Below, in pieces: positions 18,821 to 60,641 of a DNA stretch of 64,000 bases (within the stretch, counting starts at the first letter, position 1; each line of letters opens with the position of its first letter). Under the pieces are notes generated by a model. The model had not been told where the DNA came from and did not search any database. It worked only from the letters and a program-made list of their open reading frames with translations. The position numbers were made by a program, and so were the translations under genes. This stretch comes from Candidatus Vogelbacteria bacterium (GTDB lineage: Bacteria; Patescibacteriota; Minisyncoccia; Phycocordibacterales; XYD1-FULL-46-19): contig CAIPHT010000007.1 in the NCBI GenBank assembly GCA_903864935.1, forward strand, positions 16,293 through 80,292, in the 5' to 3' direction.

Positions 18821-20197
18821 ATGGAAGGAATTTTAGACAACAAGAAACTCTGGGAAAATGCCCTTAATGAGATCGAGTTGTCTATCTCTAAAGCTAACTT
18901 CGGCACCTGGTTTAAAAACACCCACATTATTAAATGTGATGACGGAATTATTCAATTAGCTGTTCCCAATGCTTTTGTTCGTGACTGGTTAGCTAATAAG
19001 TATCACAAGTTCATCTTGAAAGCTCTCCGCGATATGGAAGATGGGGTAAGATCTATCGAATACGTAATTAGCCGCCCCGACGACCAATCATCTAGTAATA
19101 AGGCTAAGATTGGTGTCAACAAAGACAACCTTCTTAGTAATGACCTTGGTTTAAAGGATCTCTATATTAACAAAGAGAGTAATCTTAATCCTAAATATGA
19201 TTTTAGCACCTTCATTGTTGGATCCTTTAATGATGTGGCCTATGCCGCTGGTCAAGCGGTAATTAAGAATCCAGGGACTGTTCATAATCCACTCTTTATT
19301 TATGGTGGAACAGGTTTGGGTAAGACCCACCTTCTCCAAGCAATTGGCAACCAGATTAAAAAGAATAATCCTAATAAATCAGTTTATTATATTAGTTCGG
19401 AGAACTTCATTGTGGAACTTATTAGTAATATTCAGAACAATAAAGGTAATAGCTTTAAGGAAAAGTTCCGCAAATATGACCTTCTTATTATTGATGATGT
19501 CCAATTTTTCTCTAACAAAGAGCATTCTCAAGAAGAACTCTTCCATTTATTCAATCATTATTACGATAACAATAAACAAATTATCTTTTCTTCAGATAAA
19601 CCCCCTAAATTTATTCCTAACCTTGAGGAGAGACTGCGTTCACGCTTCGAAGGGGGGATTATTATTGATATTTCCAAGCCTGATTATGAATCACGCTTAG
19701 CTATCCTAAGAAATAAGAATAAAACCTTAGAAATAAAGATTCCTGATGAGGTTCTCGAGTATCTTGCTTCTGTTATTCAAGACAGTATTAGAGAACTAGA
19801 GGGTTCTCTTAACTCTATTATTCTCCAATCTCAGGCTAAAAATAAAGAGATTACCTTACAAGAAGTGAAGGGGATTATTAAGAATAATATCAAACCTCAG
19901 AAAACTATTTCTATTAAAGACGTTATGCATGTTGTGGCTGATTACTATAATATTGAAGAGGCAATTCTCTATGAGAAAACTCGTCGTAAAGAGGTGGTTA
20001 AACCACGACAAATTATTATGTATATATTAAGAGAAGACTTTAATACTTCTTACCCTTATATTGGCCAAAAATTAGGTGGGAGAGACCACACAACAGTTAT
20101 TCACGCTTACGAAAAAATAAAAGAAGAAGTAAAAAATAATTCAGCCCTTGTCCAAGAGTTAGAACAAATTAGATCACTTCTTTACGCTAATAATTAA
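18821..20197 (+). CDS. dnaA: chromosomal replication initiator protein DnaA
   Basis: AAA+ Walker A GGTGLGKTHLLQAIGN, sensor motifs, C-terminal DNA-binding domain (TVIHAYEKI); 458 aa. Confidence 0.95.
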   Translation: MEGILDNKKLWENALNEIELSISKANFGTWFKNTHIIKCDDGIIQLAVPNAFVRDWLANKYHKFILKALRDMEDGVRSIEYVISRPDDQSSSNKAKIGVNKDNLLSNDLGLKDLYINKESNLNPKYDFSTFIVGSFNDVAYAAGQAVIKNPGTVHNPLFIYGGTGLGKTHLLQAIGNQIKKNNPNKSVYYISSENFIVELISNIQNNKGNSFKEKFRKYDLLIIDDVQFFSNKEHSQEELFHLFNHYYDNNKQIIFSSDKPPKFIPNLEERLRSRFEGGIIIDISKPDYESRLAILRNKNKTLEIKIPDEVLEYLASVIQDSIRELEGSLNSIILQSQAKNKEITLQEVKGIIKNNIKPQKTISIKDVMHVVADYYNIEEAILYEKTRRKEVVKPRQIIMYILREDFNTSYPYIGQKLGGRDHTTVIHAYEKIKEEVKNNSALVQELEQIRSLLYANN

Positions 20198-20432
20198 ATT
20201 TCTGTTAATAACCTGTGGAGAAGATTGTTAATAAAAAGATATTAAAAACAGGATAAGTTATAGAAAAATAAAAATATTATTTTAGAAGTAAAATTAATCT
20301 TAAGTAATCAACAGTTGAATAAAATTTATTATCTCAAATATGTTGCCAAATAAAGATATTCTGAGTTCTCCACATATCCCCAACTATAACAATAATAAGT
20401 TTCTTTTTAATTAAAAATAATTTATAAATACT
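20198..20432. other. candidate oriC (dnaA-dnaN intergenic, AT-rich with inverted DnaA-box-like pair)
   Basis: Very AT-rich 235-bp spacer. TGTGGAGAA at 20214..20222 and its reverse complement TTCTCCACA at 20366..20374 flank an AT-rich stretch. Confidence 0.45.
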
Positions 20433-21536
20433 ATGAAGCTAGAATGTCTAAAAGATAAATTTAAAGATGCTATTATCTTAGCCGAGAAGATAAGTGGGCG
20501 TAACTTAACCTTACCAATTCTAAGTACTATCCTGCTTGAGACTAAGAATAAGAATTTAATAATCAGAGCGACAAACTTAGAAGTGGGGATAGAAATAGAG
20601 ATTCCGGCCAAGATTGAAACTAGTGGTTTAGTGGCGGTTAATGCGAGTATTCTCTTGAATTATCTTAATAATCTTACTAAAGAAGAAAAAATAACCCTTG
20701 AGCTAGATAATAATAATCTTAAATTAAGTACTGAATCAACCCAAACGATTATTAAGAGTCTGGCGCCTGAAGATTTTCCTATTATTCCTAAAATTGCTCA
20801 GGAAGGTGGTTTTGAGATTAAGGCAGTTGATTTTGTCTCAGGCTTACAAGCTGTCTCTTTTGCAAGTGCAGTATCTGATATAAAACCAGAGATATCTAGC
20901 GTTTATCTTCATAATGAGAATCAAGATTTGATTTTTGTTGCCACCGACTCCTTTAGATTAGCCGAGAAAACAATAAATAATATCCCTAATTTAAGTAATC
21001 TTAATATTATTATTCCCTTTAAGAACGTGAACGAATTGATTAGAGTTCTAACTAGTTTGGGGACGAACCAAGTTGTTGTTAGTTATAATAAGAATCAATT
21101 AGCTATCCAGACAGACAATCTCTATCTTACTTTAAGGGTAATTGATGGTAATTATCCCGATTATAAACAAATCATCCCAACCAAATTTAATACTGAATTA
21201 AATATCAAAAAAGAAGATTTTGTTGGGTTACTTAAACTCTCAACAATTTTCTCTGATCGCTTTAATCAAATTGATATAACCTTTAAACCAGATTCTAATA
21301 CACTAGAAGTTTTATCTCATAACCAAGAAGTAGGGGAGAATAAATCGTCTTTAGTAATTAAAATTAAGGGCGAACCATTAATTATTAGCTTTAATGCTAA
21401 GTATTTACTAGATTGCCTTAGTTCCTTTAGTGATAATGTAATTAATCTACGTTTTACTGAGACAAGTCGACCTCTAATGATAGAGGGGACAACGGATAAC
21501 TCTTTCCATTATCTTGTGATGCCGATCAATAAGTAA
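20433..21536 (+). CDS. dnaN: DNA polymerase III subunit beta (sliding clamp)
   Basis: Three-domain clamp of 367 aa; N-terminus MKLECLKDKFKDAI...LTLPILSTILLE; conserved position after dnaA. Confidence 0.9.
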   Translation: MKLECLKDKFKDAIILAEKISGRNLTLPILSTILLETKNKNLIIRATNLEVGIEIEIPAKIETSGLVAVNASILLNYLNNLTKEEKITLELDNNNLKLSTESTQTIIKSLAPEDFPIIPKIAQEGGFEIKAVDFVSGLQAVSFASAVSDIKPEISSVYLHNENQDLIFVATDSFRLAEKTINNIPNLSNLNIIIPFKNVNELIRVLTSLGTNQVVVSYNKNQLAIQTDNLYLTLRVIDGNYPDYKQIIPTKFNTELNIKKEDFVGLLKLSTIFSDRFNQIDITFKPDSNTLEVLSHNQEVGENKSSLVIKIKGEPLIISFNAKYLLDCLSSFSDNVINLRFTETSRPLMIEGTTDNSFHYLVMPINK

Positions 21537-21537
21537 G

Positions 21538-21789
21538 ATGGATAACTTCAAAGATCTCCTTAAACTTTATAGTCAAAAATTAAATAGTACTCAATTAATT
21601 ATTGACGAAATTCTAGCTGTTATAAATAAAGAAACCGGTCTAAATCTTAATAAAACAAATTTAGTAACCAGAGATGGTATTGCTTATCTTAAAGTTAAAC
21701 CAAAACAAAAATTAGAGATTATCCTACATAAAGACAGGATAATCTCTAATTTTAAAGAAGAAAAAATTCTAATTACTGACCTAAAGTAA
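21538..21789 (+). CDS. small protein, possibly DUF721/DciA-like
   Basis: 83 aa directly after dnaN; segment TRDGIAYLKVKPKQKLEIILHKDRII loosely follows the DUF721 pattern. Weak. Confidence 0.3.
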   Translation: MDNFKDLLKLYSQKLNSTQLIIDEILAVINKETGLNLNKTNLVTRDGIAYLKVKPKQKLEIILHKDRIISNFKEEKILITDLK

Positions 21790-24226
21790 AAATGACTGTT
21801 TTGGTACTACTATTACCAGCTTGGTCATAAATAACAGCTTTTAGTTCATGTTTTCCTTTAGAAATAAGTGATTCTCCTGGGTTGAAAGCAAGAGAAAAAG
21901 GAGAATTTTTGGTTGATGTTAATTTATTATTATCAATAAAATAATCAACTTGAGATAAATTTAGATTACTAGGGAGAAGAAGAGAAATGTTAATATCACT
22001 TTGAAGTGAAAAATTACTTCCCTCTGTGGGGGAAAGAATATCAACCTGGTTGAGAAGTCTCACTTGATCTGGGTTAGGGGCACTCATAATCGTTTCTCCT
22101 CCTAAGCGTTGTGCTTTGGTCTTGAGCCATTGTTGAATAGGATATTCCCAAAGATTAAATTGCGGATCACCCGCTGGGTTACTTGGCCGTGGTCCCAAAG
22201 GATTATTTTTATCAAGCCAGTAGAGGATAGAATGAACATTATTATTAAGGACTTCTTGTCCGTTGATAATACTTGTCTCTCCACCTTGCCAATAACCACG
22301 AAGGACAGGCTTCAGACCGGCATAATTGACCACAGGGGGGATGAATTTCTCGTCTGGGGTGATAGCTAGCGCCTCCTTCATGACAGAGCTCCAGAGAGGT
22401 GTTAGGAGGTAACCAGCCACCTTCTTCTCCATTGGGGTGTTGTCACTGTTACCAGCCCAGGCCCCAACCACAACATTGGGGGTATAACCAATAACCCAAG
22501 CGTCCTTGTAGTCGTTTGTTGTCCCCGTTTTAACAGCCACCTGACGATTACCAAACCAGAGGTTAGAGTGGACACCATAAGCAGGAGCACGCGCGTTGTC
22601 ATCAGCCAAAATATCCGTTATTAATCTAGCGGTATTAACAGGAAGAACAACCTCATTCTTATCCTGATACTCTTCTATTTTGTCGCCATTTGGCCCAAGA
22701 ACACTAAGAACACCAACGGTGGCATGTTTAACTCCATCAGTGGCAAAGGTGCCATAAGCACCAGTCATATCGAGGAGAGAGACTTCACCACCACCCAAAA
22801 CGAGGGTTAAACCATATTGATTTTTATCACCAAGATTAGTAATTCCCATTTTTTTGGCTAAATCCAAAGCATCATTAATCCCAACGAGGTAAAGTAATTT
22901 AACCGCTGGGATATTGCGTGATTGGCCAAGAGCCTGTCTTAAGGTTAAGGGTCCGGGGAATTTTAAGTCATAATCATTAGGGGAGTAACATTTTGCTCCA
23001 GCGGTGAGCGGTTTGCTGGTAGGACTACAATTAGTATTAAATTCAGTTTTGAGGTCAAAAAGAACGGTCTGGTCAGTATAGCCTTTATTGAAGGCAGCGG
23101 CATAAACAAAGGGTTTGAAGGAAGAACCTGGTTGGCGATAAGCCGTGGCCACATTGAAATTACCACTAATTGCTTGGTTGAAGTAGTCACGCGAGCCGGT
23201 AAAAGCAAGAATTTGCCCTGTTTTCGGATCAATAATAACAATACTATTATTCTTAGCATTAAACTTGGTCTCGTTCTCGGTACCATATTTCTTAGCTAAT
23301 TCCTCAACTTTTTGTTGTAGATCCCAATTGATAGTGGAGATAACTTTGAAATCGTTATTCTCAATATTATCTAAGCCATAACGCTCAGCTAATTGATCCT
23401 TAAGCCAGAGAACAAAGTGAGGAGCCTTGATTCCCTGATTGATCTTCTCGTAGAAGGCGACTCGCTCTTGTTTAGCTTTATTATAATCAGTTTGAGAAAT
23501 GAGCTTGAGATCTAACATACGACTTAAGACCAAATTCTTTCTTTGTTCTAGTTTGGCTTTATTTGCCCCATAAGGAGAGTAATAATTAGGGGCTTGGGGC
23601 ATCGAGGCTAAATAAGCAGCCTCCGCGAGAGTAATCTGGGTAATATCTTTATGGAAATAGGCTTTAGCGGCCTCTTGAACCCCATAAATATTACCCCCAT
23701 AAGGAGATTGATTAAGATAAACATTCAAGATCTCGTCCTTCGTCATATTATTCTCCAGTTTAATTGAGAGAATAACTTCTTTAATCTTGCGAGTAATCGT
23801 CTTATCGCGTGTTAGAAGAGAATTTTTTACTACTTGCTGGGTGATTGTAGAGCCACCTTGTTGGGCCCCGCCAGAGACGAGGTCAACCAATAAGGCTCGG
23901 GCGATTGAGGTTGGTTGAATTCCTTTGTGTTGATAGAAACCAGCATCTTCGATTGCGATTGTGGCGTTCTTCATAATTTGGGGGATGGTCTGGAAAACGA
24001 CCGGAGTACGACGAACCCCTTTAACATCATAGAGCAAAATTTGACCAGTCCGGTCATAAATTTTCATTGACCGCTCAGCAATTTGTTTGGTGAAGAAGGT
24101 CTCGAAATCAGGCACCGGGAGAGTGATAGCCCAAATGGTAGTAAAACTACTCAAAAGGAGAAAAGCCGTGATAACAAAGAGGATTAAACTATAAATTTTA
24201 CTAAGATTATTTTTATGTTTAGACAT
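21773..24226 (-). CDS. mrcA: class A penicillin-binding protein (PBP1A; transglycosylase plus transpeptidase)
   Basis: N-terminal TM; GT51 motifs (EDAGFYQHKG, GGSTITQQ); transpeptidase SxxK (SSFKPF), SxN, KTGTT; C-terminal extra beta domain. Confidence 0.9.
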   Translation of the reverse strand: MSKHKNNLSKIYSLILFVITAFLLLSSFTTIWAITLPVPDFETFFTKQIAERSMKIYDRTGQILLYDVKGVRRTPVVFQTIPQIMKNATIAIEDAGFYQHKGIQPTSIARALLVDLVSGGAQQGGSTITQQVVKNSLLTRDKTITRKIKEVILSIKLENNMTKDEILNVYLNQSPYGGNIYGVQEAAKAYFHKDITQITLAEAAYLASMPQAPNYYSPYGANKAKLEQRKNLVLSRMLDLKLISQTDYNKAKQERVAFYEKINQGIKAPHFVLWLKDQLAERYGLDNIENNDFKVISTINWDLQQKVEELAKKYGTENETKFNAKNNSIVIIDPKTGQILAFTGSRDYFNQAISGNFNVATAYRQPGSSFKPFVYAAAFNKGYTDQTVLFDLKTEFNTNCSPTSKPLTAGAKCYSPNDYDLKFPGPLTLRQALGQSRNIPAVKLLYLVGINDALDLAKKMGITNLGDKNQYGLTLVLGGGEVSLLDMTGAYGTFATDGVKHATVGVLSVLGPNGDKIEEYQDKNEVVLPVNTARLITDILADDNARAPAYGVHSNLWFGNRQVAVKTGTTNDYKDAWVIGYTPNVVVGAWAGNSDNTPMEKKVAGYLLTPLWSSVMKEALAITPDEKFIPPVVNYAGLKPVLRGYWQGGETSIINGQEVLNNNVHSILYWLDKNNPLGPRPSNPAGDPQFNLWEYPIQQWLKTKAQRLGGETIMSAPNPDQVRLLNQVDILSPTEGSNFSLQSDINISLLLPSNLNLSQVDYFIDNNKLTSTKNSPFSLAFNPGESLISKGKHELKAVIYDQAGNSSTKTVIFTLGQ

Positions 24227-24278
24227 TTTTCTATCCTAGCACATTTTGCGTAAAAAGATAAGTGTGGTGTTATTAATA

Positions 24279-24318
24279 AAAAGACCAGGCTGACTTTATT
24301 TAGTCAGCCTGGTCTTTT
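24279..24318. terminator. bidirectional rho-independent terminator
   Basis: Perfect 15-bp stem AAAGACCAGGCTGAC/GTCAGCCTGGTCTTT with an 8-nt loop, flanked by A-run and T-run. Confidence 0.6.
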
Positions 24319-24345
24319 TATTGTGAGACGATTTTAAAATTCTTC

Positions 24346-32017: not shown

Positions 32018-32046
32018 TTGACAGATATGTTAGACTATGCTATACT
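32018..32046 (+). promoter_or_regulatory. near-consensus sigma70 promoter (TTGACA-N17-TATACT)
   Basis: TTGACA at 32018..32023, TATACT at 32041..32046, 17-nt spacer; followed by RBS AAAGGA 8 nt before the ATG at 32120. Confidence 0.55.
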
Positions 32047-32119
32047 ATAGGTAGAAATGCAGTATTGAGTTGGGAATAACTGGCGAGCTTAAAGGCCGCC
32101 TTAATGAAAGGATTTCCCC

Positions 32120-32779
32120 ATGAAGAACCTTGTTATAGTCGTTGTTTTTGTTGTCATGTTGGCGTCGGTTGCTTTTGCCCAGTCTGGGCAGAGCGTGACC
32201 TTTCACCAGCCCAACGGCGGGACGTCCACCTGGACCCCGCCGGCGGCGCAGATGGTCAAGACCCCGTGCTACGGCACGGTGCCGAGAGCCAACGGACCGG
32301 TCGTCCGTCAGCTTCAGTCGCAGTGGCCTTCTCAGGTCTCCGCCCCGATGCCGCCGGTTGTGGGTGGGACAACATCGGCTGATCCGAGCGGTGTAGCCTC
32401 CCTTCGGGGTGGCATAGTTGCCGCGCGCCCTGTTCCTTCGGGTAACCCCGAGGTCGACAGAGACAACAACCAGACGGACCTCCAATGGGGTCAGTTGGCG
32501 GCTGAGCGTGAGCGCAGCAACCAGCAGGCTGATCTGGAGAGAGTCCAGATCGAAAGGCAATACGACATCCAACGCCGTGAAGAGTCTCGCCAGACGGTTC
32601 AGACTTTGGCCAATGTCATCCAGAATTGGCAGGATGGACAGGCTCGGCGCGAAGACTCGAAGGCCTCGCGGCGAATTGAGGCAAACTGGCAGGCTCAGAA
32701 CGCCGCTCAGCAAGCGGCAGACCGCGCGAGCCAGTTGGCCCAAACGGCCATGTCAGCGGCCGCCGCGGCCAGGCACTAA
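32120..32779 (+). CDS. secreted Gln/Arg-rich protein encoded in a GC-rich island
   Basis: Signal peptide MKNLVIVVVFVVMLASVAFA-QS. GC-rich coding region that produces long shadow ORFs in other frames. Own promoter and terminator. Confidence 0.55.
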   Translation: MKNLVIVVVFVVMLASVAFAQSGQSVTFHQPNGGTSTWTPPAAQMVKTPCYGTVPRANGPVVRQLQSQWPSQVSAPMPPVVGGTTSADPSGVASLRGGIVAARPVPSGNPEVDRDNNQTDLQWGQLAAERERSNQQADLERVQIERQYDIQRREESRQTVQTLANVIQNWQDGQARREDSKASRRIEANWQAQNAAQQAADRASQLAQTAMSAAAAARH

Positions 32780-32795
32780 GTTTAGTAAAGGGTCC

Positions 32796-32840
32796 GAGCC
32801 CCTGGGAGAGAGTCACTCTCCCAGGGGCTTTTTCTTTTGT
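32796..32840 (+). terminator. rho-independent terminator
   Basis: GCCCCTGGGAGAG-AGTCACT-CTCTCCCAGGGGC followed by TTTTTCTTTTG. Confidence 0.65.
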
Positions 32841-33857: not shown

Positions 33858-33887
33858 TTGACGAGTAGGGCTATTTAGGGGTATATC
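33858..33887 (+). promoter_or_regulatory. sigma70-like promoter of GC-rich cassette (TTGACG-N18-TATATC)
   Basis: TTGACGAGTAGGGCTATTTAGGGGTATATC; near-identical in sequence to the promoter at 38851..38880. Confidence 0.5.
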
Positions 33888-33972
33888 TGAAGCAGATAAT
33901 CATTGTCATTTTACTCGGTGTCTCTGGGTGAAATGTTGAAATATCGGCGAACAGAAATAAGGAAAACTGACC

Positions 33973-34614
33973 ATGGATTACATGCTCAGCAAAGCGCTCC
34001 GCGAATTCAATTCCGGACCGCTTCATCAACTTCTAGTGAATCTTGGTGGGGAAGAGGGCGCAATGTGGGAAGCAGAGCTCAAAAAGTTCAATCGCAAGGA
34101 AACCTGCTGGCCCAAGACGAACCCCTACCTGCGCAAGCTCGCGGACGGCACGCTTCCGGCGACCGACGGCCAGCGAACGATGGTCAGGGCGAAGGACATG
34201 TTTCCCGGCTACTTCGGGAAAGATTACGCTAACTGGGGAACGGATGTCCCTGGCAAAGCGACGCCGGAAATGCCATTCCAAGTGTATGAGCTGGTCATGG
34301 ACGGTAAATTCGCGCAGATCTTCGGCGGATTCGCCCGTCCACTCGGCGAGTTGTGCTGGGAACAAGACAAGATCCTCGCGTTTGTGGAGGGTCACCCCGA
34401 ACGGCTCCACCCGCAGGGCTACGGGACCTTCTTCTTGTTCAAGGTTAAGTTCAAGGAGAACACCGAGAACAAGCGAGAGGAGTTCTTCGTTGCCAACGTC
34501 TACCGGGACGGTGGCCAGCTCAAGGCGCACGTGTTCCGGTTCTCGTTCGACAGCGTCTGGCCTGCCGGGTATCGCTATCGCTTCGTGGTCCCGCAACTGG
34601 CCTCAGCCGTTTAG
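33973..34614 (+). CDS. GC-rich cassette protein, paralog family member 1
   Basis: RBS AAGGAAAA. Shares VNxLGGEE N-terminal motif and C-terminal FFVANVYRDGGQLKAHVFRFSFDSVWPAGYRY motif with 39012..39605, 56425..56793, 59273..59920 and 53722..53901. Confidence 0.6.
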   Translation: MDYMLSKALREFNSGPLHQLLVNLGGEEGAMWEAELKKFNRKETCWPKTNPYLRKLADGTLPATDGQRTMVRAKDMFPGYFGKDYANWGTDVPGKATPEMPFQVYELVMDGKFAQIFGGFARPLGELCWEQDKILAFVEGHPERLHPQGYGTFFLFKVKFKENTENKREEFFVANVYRDGGQLKAHVFRFSFDSVWPAGYRYRFVVPQLASAV

Positions 34615-34708
34615 TCTCTGTTTCCCCTTTGTCGCTTTGATCCTCAATCCCTTGGACCCTTTCGGGGGCCCAGGGGATTTTTGCTATAAATGAGTTATAC
34701 TTAAGGCA

Positions 34709-37210
34709 ATGGCCAAAAAGAATTATAAAACCAAAATCGTCCTCATTGACGCCCATGCTATCTTGCATCGGGCTTATCATGCTTTGCCGGATTTCTCTTC
34801 GAGTAAGGGTGAGCCGACGGGCGGGCTCTACGGCTTGGCCTCGATGATGCTTCGGATTATTGCTGACCTTAAGCCAGATTATATTTTTGCTTGTTATGAC
34901 CGCGCTGAGCCAACCTTCCGTAAGCAAGTTTATGATGAATATAAGGCGGGGCGCGCTAAGGCTGAGCCAGAGTTGGTGGCGCAGATTATTCGTTCGCGCG
35001 ATATCTTCACCGCGCTTCATATACCAATCTACGATCTGGCCGGTTTTGAGGCGGATGATATTATTGGGACGATAGTTGAGAAATTGTCAAAAGGAGTTCG
35101 AGGAGAGACCTCGGGCTCACTCGAGGACTCACCTCGAACGCGACAGGCCTCCTCGGCTCAGATAATAATTGCCTCGGGTGATATGGACACCCTCCAGCTG
35201 GTTGATGACGATAGGGTTGTTGTCTTCACACTTAAGAAAGGTCTCAATGATACTGTCGTCTATGATGAGAAGATGGTGCGCGAGCGTTATGGCTTCGAAC
35301 CCAAATTCCTGATTGATTATAAAGGTTTAAGAGGTGACCCGTCTGATAATATTATTGGTGTGGAGGGTATCGGAGAGAAAACGGCGACAACTTTGATTCA
35401 AGAGTTTGGCACAATTGAAGATATTTATAAACAGATTAAAAAGGATGAGCAGGTTTTGCTTGATCGAGGTGTTAAAGCTCGAATTCTGGAGATTTTAAAG
35501 AATAGCGAAGAAGAGGCGATTTTTTCTAAAACCTTGGCAACGATCAGGCGTGATGCTGGTATTGATTTTAAATTACCTAAGGAGACTTGGGCCGAGACTT
35601 TTGAGACGACCAAGGCCGAGGGCTTATTCAATGATTTGGAGTTTAGGACTTTGATTGGGAGGTTGAAGAAACTTGAGATCGGGCCTCGCCCCACGGGCGA
35701 AGTTGGACTTCAGGGCTCATCGAAGTCCAACTTCTCACGACCGGGCTCGGCCGAGGGAGGTGAGCCGGCTGTGGGAAGTCCGACTTCAAGTGAGCCCGAA
35801 GTCGTACTTCACTCACCGGCTGAGGAACTTGAAATTAAACAACTTGCCATCGCCCTCTGGCTTATCAATTCAGACACTACCAACCCCAAGCTTGAAGATA
35901 TTTTCGAATACACCCGAACCGAAGACTTGGCCAAGGCCAAAGAAAAATTGTTGGCTGACTTAGAGAAGCTTGGCCTAACTAAAATTTACCAAGAAGTGGA
36001 ACTGCCTCTCATCCCAATACTTGAAGAGGCTCAGGCACGGGGGATTAAGGTGGATAAGAAATTATTGGCAGATTTGTCTGTTGATTATCATGCCAAGCTC
36101 AAAGATTTGGAGAAAAAGATTTATGAGCTGGCTGGCTCTGAATTCAACATTAATTCGCCCAAGCAACTAGGAGAGATTCTTTTTACCAAGCTTAATTTGT
36201 CGGTGAAGGGTCTTAAGAAGACAGCGGGAGGCAGTCAATCTACTCGCGAATCGGAGATTGCCAAGCTGAAGGATGTCCACCCAATTATCAACGAGATTCT
36301 GGCCTATCGCGAATTGCAGAAGTTGCTCTCAACTTATATTGATAATCTCCCTAAGCTCTTAGACGAGGACGATATTTTGCACCCGACCCTCAACCAGACG
36401 GGTACCACGACCGGGCGTATGTCCTCAACTAACCCTAACGTGCAGAATATCCCGACGCGGGGTGAGCAAGGGGCAGCGATTAGGACAGCCTTCGTCGCGC
36501 GCGAGGGGTATGAATTAATGGCTTTTGACTATTCTCAGATTGAGCTGCGAGTTTTGGCTGCCCTCTCACAAGATCCAGAATTAATTAAGATTTTTAACGA
36601 AGGTAAGGACATCCACACTTCGGTTGCGTCACGCGTTTTTGGAGTTATTGAGGGAGATGTGACTAAAGAGATGAGGCGACGGGCAAAGGTGATTAATTTT
36701 GGCATTATCTATGGGATGGGGGTTAATGCGCTTAAGGCCAATCTTGGGACAACTCGTGATGAAGCCCAAGAATTCATGGATAATTATTTTGCCTCTTTCC
36801 CCACTATCAAGAAATACTTCGAATTGGTGATTGAGGGAGCCAGAGACAGGGGATACACCGAGACTCTCTTTGGTCGTCGTCGTTATTTGCCGGCTCTTCA
36901 CTCTCAATTGCCTCAAATTAAGGCCAGCGCTGAGCGTATGGCGATGAATGCCCCACTTCAGGGGACGGCAGCCGATATTATTAAGCTGGCCATGATTCGG
37001 GCTGATAAAGATATCAAGGAGGCTGGTTTGTCAGACAAAGCCTTCTTGTTGCTCCAGATCCACGATGAACTTATTTTTGAAGTAAAAGAGGGACTTAGTG
37101 CTAAAGTTATGCCTTTAATTAAGAAATCCATGGAGGAGGTGATTAAGATGAATGTTCCCCTAGAGGTCTCATCGGCTCGTGGTCCTCGCTGGGGGGAACT
37201 TGAGAAATAA
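34709..37210 (+). CDS. polA: DNA polymerase I (5'-3' exonuclease plus polymerase; degenerate 3'-5' exo region)
   Basis: FEN domain (IVLIDAHAILHRAYHALPD), motif A DYSQIELR, motif B RRRAKVINFGIIYGMG, motif C LLQIHDELIFE. 833 aa. Low-complexity GC-rich linker regions carry palindromic insertions. Confidence 0.95.
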   Translation: MAKKNYKTKIVLIDAHAILHRAYHALPDFSSSKGEPTGGLYGLASMMLRIIADLKPDYIFACYDRAEPTFRKQVYDEYKAGRAKAEPELVAQIIRSRDIFTALHIPIYDLAGFEADDIIGTIVEKLSKGVRGETSGSLEDSPRTRQASSAQIIIASGDMDTLQLVDDDRVVVFTLKKGLNDTVVYDEKMVRERYGFEPKFLIDYKGLRGDPSDNIIGVEGIGEKTATTLIQEFGTIEDIYKQIKKDEQVLLDRGVKARILEILKNSEEEAIFSKTLATIRRDAGIDFKLPKETWAETFETTKAEGLFNDLEFRTLIGRLKKLEIGPRPTGEVGLQGSSKSNFSRPGSAEGGEPAVGSPTSSEPEVVLHSPAEELEIKQLAIALWLINSDTTNPKLEDIFEYTRTEDLAKAKEKLLADLEKLGLTKIYQEVELPLIPILEEAQARGIKVDKKLLADLSVDYHAKLKDLEKKIYELAGSEFNINSPKQLGEILFTKLNLSVKGLKKTAGGSQSTRESEIAKLKDVHPIINEILAYRELQKLLSTYIDNLPKLLDEDDILHPTLNQTGTTTGRMSSTNPNVQNIPTRGEQGAAIRTAFVAREGYELMAFDYSQIELRVLAALSQDPELIKIFNEGKDIHTSVASRVFGVIEGDVTKEMRRRAKVINFGIIYGMGVNALKANLGTTRDEAQEFMDNYFASFPTIKKYFELVIEGARDRGYTETLFGRRRYLPALHSQLPQIKASAERMAMNAPLQGTAADIIKLAMIRADKDIKEAGLSDKAFLLLQIHDELIFEVKEGLSAKVMPLIKKSMEEVIKMNVPLEVSSARGPRWGELEK

Positions 37211-38850: not shown

Positions 38851-38880
38851 TTGACAAGTAGGGCAATTTGGGTGTATAAT
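38851..38880 (+). promoter_or_regulatory. consensus sigma70 promoter of GC-rich cassette (TTGACA-N18-TATAAT)
   Basis: TTGACAAGTAGGGCAATTTGGGTGTATAAT; homologous to the promoters at 33858 and 59081. Confidence 0.55.
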
Positions 38881-39011
38881 GTAAGTAGAAGTTTGAAATA
38901 GAAATAGCGTTTTTTGTGAGGCAAACCGTGTTTGTCTTGCTGTCTTGTTTGGCCTCTTGCCTATCAGGTGAGAGGAACCCCCGACTATCAGTCGGGAGAA
39001 AGGCTACGGCC

Positions 39012-39605
39012 ATGTCAAAGTATGGACACAGAACAGGAGACTGGTGTGAGGCGATTGTGAACAAGCTTGGAGGAGAAGAAGCGGCTGACGCTTTCCTTCG
39101 GGACGAGTTGGTCATCTCCAAACGGCCCGCCGATGCCATCCTCGAGTTCGTCGGCACGGCCAACATCGCCGCCACGACAACGAAGTTCGTCGCCAAGGAA
39201 AAGTTCAAGCTGAAGAAGGATGGGGGCATCTGCTCCTATATCGGCGACAACTTCAAGGACTGGTTCGGCGGCAAAGAGGAGGATCCGCTTGCCGAAACCA
39301 CGCTCCGCTATGCCAAACTCCGCAAGTCGTCCGTCGACACCCCGATTGTCGCCGAGCTTGGCGGTGAAGCAAAGGCCGAGACCACGTTGACGGAAGTCTT
39401 TGGTCTTATGTCCAAACAGGCCAAGGCCGAGACTGGCGTTCTCCTCACCAATGGCTGGGCGAACATCTTCTATGTTCGCGATCAGAATGGTGTGTTGCGC
39501 GCGGTCTTCGTCCACTGGGACGACGGCGGCTGGAGCGTGCACGCGGGCGAGCTCGGCTACCCGGATACGTGGCTCGATGGCTACCAGGTGTTCTCTCGCA
39601 ATTAG
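39012..39605 (+). CDS. GC-rich cassette protein, paralog family member 2
   Basis: RBS GGGAGAAAGG 9 nt upstream; MSKYGHRTGDWCEAIVNKLGGEEAAD...IFYVRDQNGVLRAVFVHWDDGGWSVHAGELGY. Start set at the internal Met of track ORF 38916..39605. Confidence 0.6.
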   Translation: MSKYGHRTGDWCEAIVNKLGGEEAADAFLRDELVISKRPADAILEFVGTANIAATTTKFVAKEKFKLKKDGGICSYIGDNFKDWFGGKEEDPLAETTLRYAKLRKSSVDTPIVAELGGEAKAETTLTEVFGLMSKQAKAETGVLLTNGWANIFYVRDQNGVLRAVFVHWDDGGWSVHAGELGYPDTWLDGYQVFSRN

Positions 39606-39675
39606 CGCTTAGGGTCTTGGAAACTTCGGGTTTCTGACCCTTAGATCCTTTTGACCCTTTGGCCCTGTTCCCTTA

Positions 39676-39715
39676 ACCCCCGGACGCATTTCGTCCGGGG
39701 GTTTCGCTTTTTGGG
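39676..39715 (+). terminator. rho-independent terminator
   Basis: ACCCCCGGACG-CATTT-CGTCCGGGGGT followed by TTCGCTTTTTGGG. Confidence 0.6.
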
Positions 39716-43767: not shown

Positions 43768-44673
43768 TTACTTTTGGCAACTGGCACAAAAGTGAGTACC
43801 CCTGCCGGCGTGGCGGATCTTTTGGATCGGGCGACCACAGACCTTGCAAGGCTCGCCTTCGCGACCATAGACATTAAGATGGGGGACGAAGCCGCCCCTG
43901 GTGCCATCGCTCCGGCGGTAATTGCGAGAGGAAGTGCCTTTCTTTTGGATTGAGAGCTTGAGAACTTTAATAATATTGTCTCGCAAATTTTTTATCTCCG
44001 CTGGCTTGAGGGTTGAAACTTTTCTCGTTGGGAGAAATTTAGACAAGAAGCAGGCTTCATCGGCATAGATATTCCCAATCCCAGCAATCAGGGTTTGATC
44101 AAGAAGTATTTGTTTGATTGTTCTATTTTTATATTTCTTAAATATCTCAGCAAGAAGGCTGGGAGTGAAGATGGGGGAGAGCGGTTCGGGGCCGATATTC
44201 TCGACGAGTTTGCCTATTTGCTTATCATCCGCTAGTCTTACCCAACCAAATTTGCGCAGGTCATTGAAGTAGAGTTTAGACTTATCAGTGAATTCAAAAA
44301 TGAGGCGAGTGTATTTGGAGGGTTGCTTCTCGAGCATTTGGTCATCGGGATGTCCTCCAAGGACCGCTTGCCCGAGGACAGTCCTTGAACTGCCCCTAAG
44401 GACTGTCCTCGGGCAAGCTGGAACAAAAATTAATTGCCCTGTCATCTTGAGATGCACCGCGAGCGCCAAGTCACCCTCAAAATCAATAAAAAGCATTTTG
44501 GCCCTGCGCCTTACTTCTTTTATTTTTTTCCCTTTTATTTGTTTGAGAAATTCGTTGGGTGAGAAAGGACCCACCGTTTTAGCCCAAAGAACCTGAGTGT
44601 CTTTAATCTCCAGACCAATCAGGACTTTATTTAGTTCGCGTTTTAGAGTCTCAACTTCTGGTAGTTCGGGCAT
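43768..44673 (-). CDS. mutM: formamidopyrimidine-DNA glycosylase (Fpg/MutM)
   Basis: MPELPEVE catalytic N-terminus, H2TH, C-terminal zinc finger CKVCGRPIQ...CASCQ. Contains an in-frame palindromic insertion (RTVL repeat). Confidence 0.9.
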   Translation of the reverse strand: MPELPEVETLKRELNKVLIGLEIKDTQVLWAKTVGPFSPNEFLKQIKGKKIKEVRRRAKMLFIDFEGDLALAVHLKMTGQLIFVPACPRTVLRGSSRTVLGQAVLGGHPDDQMLEKQPSKYTRLIFEFTDKSKLYFNDLRKFGWVRLADDKQIGKLVENIGPEPLSPIFTPSLLAEIFKKYKNRTIKQILLDQTLIAGIGNIYADEACFLSKFLPTRKVSTLKPAEIKNLRDNIIKVLKLSIQKKGTSSRNYRRSDGTRGGFVPHLNVYGREGEPCKVCGRPIQKIRHAGRGTHFCASCQK

Positions 44674-44686
44674 AAAACCCAATATA

Positions 44687-57838: not shown

Positions 57839-58597
57839 ATGGGTATTATTGTTGTGGTCATTATTATTGTTCTCTTCTTTTTGGCGACCTCTTTGCGCGT
57901 GGTTAAGGAGTATGATCGAGGCGTTATCTTTTTTCTCGGTAAGTGTACCGGTGTTCGTGGGCCAGGGCTTATTATCCTTATTCCGATTCTAGAACAAATG
58001 ACCAAGGTCACCTTGCGTACCATTACGATGAATATTCCATCGCAGAAGATTATTACTAAAGATAATGTCTCTATTGATATTGCCGCCGTCGCTTACTATC
58101 ACATTGTTGATGCTGAGAAGTCGGTTGTGGCGATTGAGGATGTTTATGACGCGGTGAATCAGATTAGTCAGACAACAGTAAGAAATGTCGTTGGTCGCTT
58201 TTCTCTTGACCAACTTCTTTCTCAGACCAGTGATATCAATGTTCAGATTAAGGATGTTATTGATTCTCACACTGAACCATGGGGTGCTCAAGTGACGGCG
58301 GTAGAGATTAAGGATATTCAACTTCCTGAGAACATGCAACGGGCGATGGCTAAAGAGGCTGAGGCTGAGCGTGAGCGACGAGCTAAGATTGTGGCCGCTG
58401 AAGGAGAATTTCAGGCTGCTGTTAAACTTGGTGAAGCCGCTGATATTATTGCTTCTCACCCGGTCGCCCTTCAATTGCGAACACTCCAGACCATGGCCGA
58501 GATTAGCGTGGAGAAGAATTCAACCATAATTTTCCCTGCTCAATTTATGACGACTGTCTCCGAGGCAATTAAGATGATTAAGGGGGACAATGCTTAG
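57839..58597 (+). CDS. SPFH/band-7 (stomatin-like) protein
   Basis: N-terminal TM, RVVKEYDRGVIFFLGK, SPFH core, C-terminal AKEAEAERERRAKI coiled coil. Confidence 0.9.
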   Translation: MGIIVVVIIIVLFFLATSLRVVKEYDRGVIFFLGKCTGVRGPGLIILIPILEQMTKVTLRTITMNIPSQKIITKDNVSIDIAAVAYYHIVDAEKSVVAIEDVYDAVNQISQTTVRNVVGRFSLDQLLSQTSDINVQIKDVIDSHTEPWGAQVTAVEIKDIQLPENMQRAMAKEAEAERERRAKIVAAEGEFQAAVKLGEAADIIASHPVALQLRTLQTMAEISVEKNSTIIFPAQFMTTVSEAIKMIKGDNA

Positions 58598-58630: not shown

Positions 58631-59017
58631 ATGACAATAAATTATCTAGGTATCATTTTGGGGACAGCTCTTAATATTGTTCTGGCTCGAATTTGGTACG
58701 GGGTCTTCTTTAAGGATCTTTGGCGGTCTCTTACCAATCGCACGGCCACCGAGAAGCCGGATAGGTTGCAGATGGTTGTCGCCCTTATTTTTGGCTTAAT
58801 GATGTCTCTTGGGGTTAATCTTTTGGTTGGACTCTTTGCTATTGATACTCTTGCTTGGGGTTTGTTTATTGGTCTTGTTCTTGGCGTCCTCATTGTTGCC
58901 CCGATTATCTTGGGGGAGTGGATTTGGGATAAGAAAAATTTTGAACTCGCGGCCATAAACGCCGGTTTCTATCTGGTTTATCTCGTCTTAGCTTTCTTTA
59001 TCTTCGTTTTGGTTTAA
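58631..59017 (+). CDS. small polytopic membrane protein (DUF1761-like)
   Basis: 128 aa, four hydrophobic helices, WYGVFFKDLW motif; frequently paired with SPFH genes (inference). Confidence 0.5.
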   Translation: MTINYLGIILGTALNIVLARIWYGVFFKDLWRSLTNRTATEKPDRLQMVVALIFGLMMSLGVNLLVGLFAIDTLAWGLFIGLVLGVLIVAPIILGEWIWDKKNFELAAINAGFYLVYLVLAFFIFVLV

Positions 59018-59080
59018 TTTCTAAATTTTCCAAGGCCCCCGCGACAAGGGCGGAACATCCTTTGGGGTATCACATAGGTC

Positions 59081-59109
59081 TTGACAATACGCAATAAAGG
59101 GTGTATAAT
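59081..59109 (+). promoter_or_regulatory. consensus sigma70 promoter (TTGACA-N17-TATAAT) of GC-rich cassette
   Basis: TTGACAATACGCAATAAAGGGTGTATAAT; shares the GCAAT...GGGTGTATAAT core with the promoter at 38851. Confidence 0.55.
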
Positions 59110-59272
59110 TAAAAAAGATAAGTAATAAGAAGTGCTGGTTCTTTTAAAAACTGGTTGCGCCTAGCCAGCGTAATTGTTGCCCTCGTTCGGGGGATTACGG
59201 CTCTCTGTTCCATGTGGCGCAGAGGAAAGTAAAACTGGCCAAACGGCCACATTCCCCTGAAAGGAGGAAAAG

Positions 59273-59920
59273 ATGAGGCAGGTGAAATTCAAGGCGACAT
59301 GGGATCACAAACCGTTCGCCGAAATTGACGGATGGCCAGCTTGGCCAACATCGGAAGGGGTTCAGCCCATGGTCGGTGAGACATGGGAGGTGGACGTTGC
59401 TGGTGTTAAGAGCGGGATGGACAAGTGGATAAGACTTGTCCGTAAGGTAGAGGCAGAACCCGTTGCTGGGCCTGCTACTATCGTTGTCGTGAGGGACAGC
59501 AATGATATGTTGTACTCACCGACGAATTGGAAAGTCCTGATCGATGGCCAGCCATTACGGAAAGATGCGCCAGTTGTTGATGCTGTGAGGAGCATTAAGT
59601 TCGCTCTTCCGAGCAACGATCGGGCGAAGGAGTATGCGAACTCCCTGTTTCAGCTGGAGGAAGGAAGGATTTACGTTTTGATCTTTGAGACGTACAACTC
59701 GAGGAATACCCCTCGCATTGTAAGTGAAGGGGGACTGATTCGGGTGTTCGCCTATGGCGATGGTCACGGAATGTCGTGGGCGGCGTTGTTCAAGGTAAGC
59801 GAACCATCCTGGACCGTCGACTGGAATACGCCGAGCGGCAAGTACCGGATCGTTGGGTCCGGAGAGAAGTACGTTCATAAGGACGAGGAACGAAGGGTTG
59901 AAGAAGCCCCTATCGCATAA
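59273..59920 (+). CDS. GC-rich cassette protein, paralog family member
   Basis: RBS AAAGGAGG; ...GGLIRVFAYGDGHGMSWAALFKVSEPSWTVDWNTPSGKYRI C-terminal family motif; ~165-nt structured 5' leader; followed by a terminator hairpin (CCCACCAT...ATGGTGGG plus T-run). Confidence 0.55.
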   Translation: MRQVKFKATWDHKPFAEIDGWPAWPTSEGVQPMVGETWEVDVAGVKSGMDKWIRLVRKVEAEPVAGPATIVVVRDSNDMLYSPTNWKVLIDGQPLRKDAPVVDAVRSIKFALPSNDRAKEYANSLFQLEEGRIYVLIFETYNSRNTPRIVSEGGLIRVFAYGDGHGMSWAALFKVSEPSWTVDWNTPSGKYRIVGSGEKYVHKDEERRVEEAPIA

Positions 59921-60035
59921 AAACTTCATTGCCCACCATTCGAACACAGGGAAACCTCCCGTCGTGAGATGGTGGGTTTTCTTTTTAAAAAATTAAGTAG
60001 AACCTTTTTCTTATTTAAGCTATTATAGTTCTACT

Positions 60036-60641
60036 ATGTTTAATATTGTCGCTTTGGTAAAAACTTTTGGCTACTTGGGAATTTTTGGGGTTGTCTTTGC
60101 CGAGTCGGGATTATTTTTTGGTTTCTTCTTGCCGGGGGATTCGCTGGTTTTTACGGCGGGATTTTTAGCTTCGCAAAATTATCTTAATATTTACATTCTT
60201 CTTGTTGGCTTACTCATCTCAGCGGTAGTGGGGGATAATGTGGGTTATTGGTTTGGGGCGAAGGTGGGGCCAATGATTTTCAAAAAAGAGGATTCCCGTT
60301 TTTTCAAAAAACATTATGTTGAAGAAGCTCACAAATTTTTTGAGAAGTATGGGGGCAAGAGTTTGATCTTGGCGCGCTTCGTTCCCGTTGTGCGCACCTT
60401 TATCCCGATTGTGGCCGGGGTGGCAAAAATGGAATACAAAAAGTTTTTTCTCTTTAATGTTGTTGGCGGTTTGCTCTGGGCGGTGGGTCTATGTTTGGCC
60501 GGCTTTTATCTCGGGCGAGTGATCCCCGATGCTGATACTTACATTATCCCTATTATCCTTCTGATTATTGTCGTTTCTGTTTTGCCTGGCTTGGGTCACT
60601 TCGGCGGAACTTATGTCTCTCGGAAAATTAGGAAGAAGTAA
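60036..60641 (+). CDS. dedA: DedA-family membrane protein
   Basis: GIFGVVFAESGLFFGFFLPGDSLVFTAGFLA and FVPVVRTFIPIVAG motifs. Confidence 0.85.
   Translation: MFNIVALVKTFGYLGIFGVVFAESGLFFGFFLPGDSLVFTAGFLASQNYLNIYILLVGLLISAVVGDNVGYWFGAKVGPMIFKKEDSRFFKKHYVEEAHKFFEKYGGKSLILARFVPVVRTFIPIVAGVAKMEYKKFFLFNVVGGLLWAVGLCLAGFYLGRVIPDADTYIIPIILLIIVVSVLPGLGHFGGTYVSRKIRKK

Follow-up and report, generated by a model that had tools for sequence, protein, structure and literature searches.

The stretch of 64,000 nucleotides (nt) from Candidatus Vogelbacteria bacterium analyzed here (GCA_903864935.1, contig CAIPHT010000007.1; hereafter the window) contains a single-gene unit of about 1 kb between a DUF1761 gene and a DedA/VTT gene. 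It comprises a promoter, an untranslated leader, an open reading frame (ORF) encoding a protein of 215 amino acids (aa) and a terminator. This segment is an acquired, strain-specific and self-contained gene unit that replaces the PAP2 gene of the closest relatives. Its features are as follows:

59019 to 60022, + strand: whole acquired unit, about 1 kb, an indel with respect to the closest relatives
59069 to 59090, + strand: motif ATCACATAGGTCTTGACAATAC, overlapping the -35 box and shared with positions 368-390 of the homologous locus L026
59081 to 59109, + strand: sigma-70-type promoter (-35 TTGACA, 17-nt spacer, -10 TATAAT), 12/12 consensus
59116 to 59272, + strand: 5' untranslated leader of about 157 nt, its start placed 7 nt past the -10 box by inference
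59119 to 59133, + strand: TAAGTA-N4-GAAGT at the leader start, in common with the start of the leader of the unit at 38851
59181 to 59267, + strand: predicted three-way junction, pair probabilities 0.8-1.0
59260 to 59267, + strand: ribosome-binding site (RBS) AAAGGAGG, 5 nt 5' of the ATG at 59273, as read from the sequence
59273 to 59920, + strand: ORF of 215 aa; residues 1-60 TRAM/OB-like barrel, residues ~66-215 all-beta domain
59931 to 59986, + strand: intrinsic terminator, an interrupted hairpin (59931-59977) and then UUUUCUUUUU

The unit begins directly 3' of the DUF1761 stop codon (59015-59017) and ends about 13 nt 5' of the DedA/VTT start. The upstream neighbor was assigned to DUF1761 by Pfam (E = 2e-18), with a spacer of about 60 nt between its stop codon and the promoter, and genes for HAD, DsbB, SecE, NusG and L11 also lie around the unit, the last three downstream. 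Close homologues of the neighboring DedA protein bear the name Candidatus Paceibacterota. In blastn comparisons with L020 and L023, two loci in synteny whose DedA shares 86-90% identity with that of the window, DNA homology breaks at 59018 and restarts at 60014-60023. The gene order in these loci is DUF1761-PAP2-(73 aa)-DedA; the PAP2 gene occupies the corresponding site in relatives with or without the 73-aa ORF, and the intergenic gaps in their version of the locus measure 16-38 nt. The break and restart of homology indicate that the entire stretch from promoter to terminator is a strain-specific replacement. The ORF also differs in composition, with a GC content of 0.533 and of 0.605 at third codon positions (GC3), against about 0.43-0.48 for the neighboring genes, whose GC3 is about 0.45. 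Variation in this neighborhood is not restricted to the unit: upstream of DUF1761 the window has a Band_7 gene (57839-58597), a place taken by HIT and Cu-oxidase_4 genes in L020 and L023.

Its own promoter and terminator, its atypical composition and its presence or absence among relatives are the traits of a moron-like acquired transcription unit. The likeness to phage morons extends to the single gene, the strength of the promoter, the intrinsic type of the terminator and the existence of homologues in prophages and phages. Other kinds of mobile unit were considered and rejected. An integron gene cassette would be a promoterless ORF with an attC site, arrayed by an integrase, and we found a unit with its own 12/12 promoter, dispersed units and no adjacent integrase ORF. 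A retron or a diversity-generating retroelement was discarded because no reverse transcriptase is present.

The consensus promoter had been noticed in the original prediction, and our scan bears it out, with only two promoters in the 64 kb matching the consensus at 12/12 positions (59081 and 38851). The core said to be common to both was recovered as well, the exact 11-mer GGGTGTATAAT being found in the window only at 38870 and 59099, with GCAAT upstream of both copies. The same two places are the only ones in the window with TAAGTA-N0-4-GAAGT (38882 and 59119; 0.11 expected by chance). In IMG/VR, a pattern scan for TTGACA-N12-GGGTGTATAAT returned more than 120 matches; given its frequency in viral contigs, this promoter form is generic and carries no signature of origin. 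The motif ATCACATAGGTCTTGACAATAC occurs once in the window and agrees with L026 368-390 in 20 of 23 columns (one gap, E = 0.033), with the start codon at a similar distance of ~200 nt in each case. The piece common to both upstream regions reads ATCACATA(A)GGTCTTGA--ATAC around the L026 -35 box, and no other upstream stretch is shared. At the other end of the leader, the RBS was confirmed at the expected place, and so was the terminator hairpin 3' of the gene, with a folding energy of -23.7 kcal/mol (z = -3.64) that none of 200 shuffled sequences equalled.

The unit had been regarded as the third copy of a cassette, with a family C-terminal motif in its protein. We found four GC-rich single-gene units in the window, each with its own promoter and terminator (ORFs 32120-32779, 33973-34614, 39012-39605 and 59273-59920), and the description as a self-contained GC-rich transcription unit is correct. 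The copy status is not, as the proteins have no detectable homology: tblastn revealed no paralogue of the 215-aa protein in the window, all-against-all BLASTP of the four proteins gave E-values of at least 0.15, and aligning the family profile with the proteins encoded at 39012 and 33973 by hhalign gave probabilities of 0.8% and 0.07%. The supposed C-terminal motif common to the cassettes fell with the same searches, and it is a generic beta-hairpin resemblance. The units have an architecture in common, and those at 38851 and 59081 also part of the promoter and of the leader start.

The other three units (32018-32840, 33858-34690 and 38851-39700) have GC3 values of 0.70-0.75 and lie among AT-richer housekeeping genes, each with a promoter, a leader and a strong terminator. 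Their proteins had no family match in Pfam, PADLOC or PHROGs. The promoters at 33859-33888 and 38851-38880 are near-identical including the spacer, TTGAC(G/A)AGTAGGGC(T/A)ATTT(A/G)GG(G/T)GTATA, and the proteins encoded at 33973 and 39012 show weak collinear similarity (LGGEE motif; BLASTP E = 0.1-0.2). Distant paralogy or a common donor may account for this.

The protein of the unit at 59019-60022 belongs to a rare family. It has no match in Pfam, PADLOC or PHROGs. Pfam thresholds of E ≤ 1 for the full length and of E ≤ 0.1 for residues 1-62 brought up no family, and thus no cold-shock domain PF00313, and BLAST against GenBank phages gave no match. Seventeen representatives were found among 1.84 billion proteins, and a search of 5.8 billion clusters gave 2 matches with the single sequence and 10 with the profile. 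The 17-sequence family shares a conserved core of ~150 aa with the motifs SYNA, YGDGHGMRWAAL, W-vD-dvPGHHGHG and a C-terminal ER--EEAP-V. This core occurs alone (P0005, P0007, P0008, P0011, P0012 and P0015), behind the cold-shock domain PF00313 (P0002, P0018, P0019, P0016 and P0021) or behind the 60-aa domain of the window type (P0001, P0003, P0004 and P0014). The window protein lacks the His-rich loop PGHHGHG (residues ~186-190) kept by almost all other members, and retains YGDGHGM and the C-terminal EEAP tail.

An AlphaFold2 model built on the 17-sequence alignment reached a predicted local distance difference test score (pLDDT) of 89.9 and a predicted template modeling score of 0.70, while a single-sequence run gave a pLDDT of 34. 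In the model, residues 1-60 form a five-stranded barrel. The all-beta domain that follows contains SYN-, YGDGHGM-W-AL-KV and, at the C-terminus, the EEAP-tail. Foldseek matched the barrel to the RumA and RlmCD TRAM domains (probability 1.0, 63-64 columns). The superposition on these domains (PDB 2bh2, 1uwv and 5zq0) has a root-mean-square deviation of 3.4-3.6 Å, but the identity is 14-16% with E-values of 0.01-0.06 and no Pfam TRAM match. RumA and RlmCD moreover carry a methyltransferase domain, absent here, where the partner is a beta-sandwich with no confident Foldseek match in PDB or BFVD. As modeled, the protein is thus an N-terminal TRAM/OB-like barrel joined to an uncharacterized and novel beta-sandwich of ~150 aa.

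Homologues of this protein adjoin a holin and an amidase (L008), large serine recombinases (L009 and L010) and a terminase large subunit (L015; PF03237, E = 3.9e-10); another is carried by an IMG/VR viral contig (L019), and one lies within a toxin-antitoxin island (L006). Judged by these neighbors, the family contexts are mostly Patescibacteria prophages or phages. The nearest relative of the N-terminal domain (P0014, L026 585-884) is a truncated 99-aa ORF that ends just after the GPATILV linker. It has a degenerate promoter region and probably represents a copy of such a unit in decay.

Between the promoter and the ATG there are 163 nt without an in-frame start codon for the ORF. The leader had been described as highly structured over ~165 nt, with nested pairings. 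Strong structure is predicted for its 3' domain (59169-59272), for which the minimum free energy (MFE) fold equals the centroid at -42.1 kcal/mol (z = -4.15, none of 200 shuffles as good), but not for the first 65 nt (59116-59180), which should be open (z = -0.54). The whole leader has an MFE of about -58 to -60 kcal/mol. In the three-way junction predicted within the 3' domain, the closing helix would pair CCUC (59181-84) with GAGG (59264-67), the core of the Shine-Dalgarno (SD) sequence, and 59187-94 with 59253-60, and 59202-59225 and 59236-59249 would form two hairpins. All the complementary segments of the original prediction exist: GCGCC at 59157 with GGCGC at 59216, CGUAAU at 59169 with AUUACG at 59194 enclosing CCC/GGG, and AUGUGGC at 59212 with GCCACAU at 59246. 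However, GGCGC (59216-20) overlaps AUGUGGC (59212-18), which makes these two pairings mutually exclusive and the nested set impossible as a whole. Relative to the reference MFE of -57.8 kcal/mol, forcing the CGUAAU/AUUACG hairpin costs +6.4 kcal/mol, adding AUGUGGC/GCCACAU raises this to +12.2, and adding GCGCC/GGCGC too raises it to +15.1.

The leader could be functionless, leftover noncoding DNA of the foreign segment whose predicted structure would follow from its GC-rich composition. For the leader as a whole, z is -3.19 and one of 200 shuffles folds as well; across the 64 kb, ~4% of the windows of 160 nt score z ≤ -3. The coding part folds equally well or better, with z = -4.2 for the first 160 nt of the ORF (59281-59440) and -3.3 for 59377-59480, and the leader is not conserved, all of which is compatible with a by-product. 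On the other hand, the strong structure is confined to the segment abutting the SD: in a sliding scan with 104-nt windows, the 3' domain (z = -3.5) falls in the top 2-3% and the adjacent windows are near 0. A useless leader would also be out of place in compact Patescibacteria genomes, considering the short gaps that the relatives have at this locus, and the near-ideal promoter, RBS and terminator suggest selection for expression. We regard a functionless leader as possible but rather doubtful.

Comparative evidence on the leader is scarce. Six public contigs carry the gene, all 100% identical over 59000-60050 and hence without covariation information. The leaders of the closest homologues with upstream DNA (L007, L026 and L027; 35-45% protein identity) were unalignable to the window leader. 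A covariance model (R1) made from the window leader and its predicted fold recovered only itself among 15 related loci, and 80 viral loci yielded no match. When IMG/VR was scanned for segments of the leader, by exact as well as by structural patterns, there were 0 matches, and BLAST of the leader against GenBank phages gave only chance matches of 30-39 nt. Homologues consisting of the core domain only (L008 and L014) directly abut the preceding gene and have no leader. The unrelated leaders of the nearest homologues, together with these leaderless members, argue against a conserved aptamer tied to the family.

The original prediction took the leader for a riboswitch, attenuator or thermosensor-like element, and the Rfam scan proposed along with it was run. 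At gathering scores, Rfam 15 matched only tRNAs in the window. With permissive filters on 58950-60050 (E ≤ 10), the leader was touched only by the DUF1874 RNA model, which scored 15.3 bits (E = 9.3) where the gathering score is 42; this amounts to no family match even at this threshold. In a terminator scan of the + strand of the leader, the sole candidate was CTGGTTGCGCCTAGCCAG, and the CGTAATTGTT after it does not constitute a U-run; the hairpins 59202-25 and 59236-49 precede GAAAGU and CAUUCC respectively. No hairpin with a U-run exists within the leader, which speaks against an attenuator. A leader peptide was also rejected. The sole candidate is a 25-codon TTG-initiated ORF at 59155-59232 on the + strand (LRLASVIVALVRGITALCSMWRRGK), hydrophobic and without SD, which is probably a chance ORF.

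A novel cis-acting sensor would be a translational riboswitch or an RNA thermometer, with the three-way junction as the OFF state and the CGUAAU/AUUACG hairpin as the alternative. The junction does enclose the SD in the domain with z = -4.15, the alternative hairpin, 6.4 kcal/mol above the MFE, is mutually exclusive with it, and the leader of the L027 homologue is predicted to fold with this topology too, from anti-SD through two hairpins to SD (z = -3.58). The L027 anti-SD lies probably 5' of the transcription start, so that this topology is a hint only, and the alternative fold of the window leader does not free the SD, which pairs there with a nearby CCCCU. In silico, raising the temperature from 4 °C to 37 °C and 45 °C moved the mean unpaired probability of the SD from 0.22 to 0.26 and 0.28, and the MFE topology stayed constant, which indicates no thermometer-like behavior. 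When the SD region was kept fixed and the upstream 144 nt were shuffled, SD occlusion was equalled or exceeded in 24% of the shuffles. Compared with SD-sequestering riboswitches and with RNA thermometers such as ROSE and fourU, the likeness lies in the SD core predicted to pair with an upstream C/U-rich anti-SD in a multi-helix junction; the differences are the lack of a conserved aptamer, of a known family and of melting in silico, and an SD occlusion no greater than in shuffles. Riboswitch aptamers are normally conserved widely, whereas the window leader is a singleton with no relatives to provide covariation. A sensor of this kind appears very improbable to us. None of these tests, from Rfam and the terminator scan to temperature folding, SD shuffles and the covariance-model search, gave support to the leader as a riboregulator, and it belongs to no described RNA family.

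A different kind of control is suggested by the protein. In an autoregulatory operator analogous to that of cspA, the OB-fold (TRAM-like) N-terminal domain would bind its own leader at the structured 3' domain and influence how accessible the SD or how stable the mRNA is. The mRNA of E. coli cspA has a 5' untranslated region (UTR) of ~160 nt that acts as a thermosensor (PMC6386945) and is bound by CspA (PMC9947658). The window leader, at ~157 nt, is of nearly equal length, and it precedes a small protein whose N-terminal 60 aa were placed by Foldseek among RNA-binding TRAM/OB folds, with paralogues that have a true cold-shock domain at the same position. In addition, all the members fused to an OB-type domain have a long noncoding upstream region. 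It measures 255 nt in the window and 259 nt in L026, has a length of at least 117 nt in L007, and spans 464-556 nt in L006, L010 and L013, while the domain-only L008 and L014 abut the preceding gene. But this correlation rests on ~8 loci, several of them closely related, and their leaders have no alignable sequence or structure in common. Nor is there any sequence similarity or Rfam match to the cspA type, the window protein has no Pfam cold-shock or TRAM domain and carries a beta-sandwich of 150 aa besides, and no temperature dependence is predicted. We consider autoregulation by analogy with cspA unlikely.

Candidate type III hammerhead ribozymes were observed in two of these loci (L010 860-923 and L013 3280-3338), ~270 nt 5' of genes for homologues fused to the cold-shock domain. 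Their CUGAUGA and GAAA cores are intact and their stems I are fully compensatory between the two loci (UACCUC/GAGGUA against UCCAGC/GCUGGA); Rfam Hammerhead_3 scores them full-length at 29.0 and 25.7 bits, below the gathering score of 48.5. In the leader of the window, a ribozyme was rejected, as there is no CUGAUGA core and no Rfam match. The hammerheads enter a wider version of the autoregulatory proposal, in which the TRAM/OB-like domain would bind the junction of its own 5' UTR and OB-fused members would always come with long leader RNAs, some of them hammerhead-processed (L010 and L013). This broader module seems to us unlikely too, if anything slightly more so than the operator itself.

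We suggest, with a probability of roughly 55%, that 59019-60022 is a horizontally acquired, moron-like accessory gene unit in a Paceibacteria-type chromosome (Patescibacteria, or candidate phyla radiation, CPR), with a passive structured 5' UTR. The strong promoter would be constitutive, with transcription starting near 59116 and giving a 5' UTR of 157 nt. The first 65 nt of this UTR, A-rich, would stay open, and the last ~90 nt would fold into the compact three-way junction whose closing helix pairs the SD with the upstream CCUC. Sensing neither ligand nor temperature, the structured UTR would damp initiation from a very strong promoter and RBS, shield the mRNA from decay dependent on the 5' end, or both. 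Control of mRNA stability by long 5' UTRs has been documented in a phage (PMC4762005). For the leader, a passive role is the most economical one and the most likely.

Several points weigh against this proposal of a moron-like unit with a passive leader. No repeats, integrase or target-site duplication were found at the unit borders. The flanks are chromosomal genes, DUF1761 and DedA, and phage contexts were found for the homologues only; with the unit placed between housekeeping genes and in no recognizable prophage, the term moron describes its architecture and not membership of the class. A long structured leader is not a defining trait of morons either. As to the leader, its 3' domain is more structured than 97-98% of the windows, which would equally suit a dedicated regulatory RNA. 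Since 24% of the shuffles occlude the SD at least as much, the proposed damping of translation lacks statistical support, and the transcription start, the fold and the effects on translation and stability are all predictions.

The unit flags a rare and structurally confident protein family, combining an OB barrel with a novel beta-sandwich, that moves with Patescibacteria phages. It also offers a compact set of parts from a Paceibacteria-type genome, with promoter, RBS and terminator all near-ideal. This is of modest practical value for the genetic tools under development for Patescibacteria, which require such parts and where inducible expression has been named as a gap (PMC11665869). If the leader were regulatory, it would be among very few cis-regulatory RNAs documented in the phylum, a status for which the support here is thermodynamic prediction, and if the autoregulatory reading were true, mobile elements of Patescibacteria would have a new module of protein-RNA regulation.

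Elsewhere in the window, the strongest fold is a perfect hairpin of ~15 bp at 24275-24320 (z = -9 to -15), lying between A-runs and T-runs (AAAAAGACCAGGCTGAC...GTCAGCCTGGTCTTTTT), which looks like an ordinary bidirectional terminator. Unusually low folding energies of the + strand were also observed at 35041-35196, 35717-35820 and 44349-44452 (z = -5.2 to -6.9), segments that sit inside long ORFs, namely polA and the minus-strand ORF 43768-44682. The region 19000-22000 has a low GC content (0.29-0.35, against about 0.43-0.45 elsewhere) and may be another foreign segment, with the opposite compositional bias.

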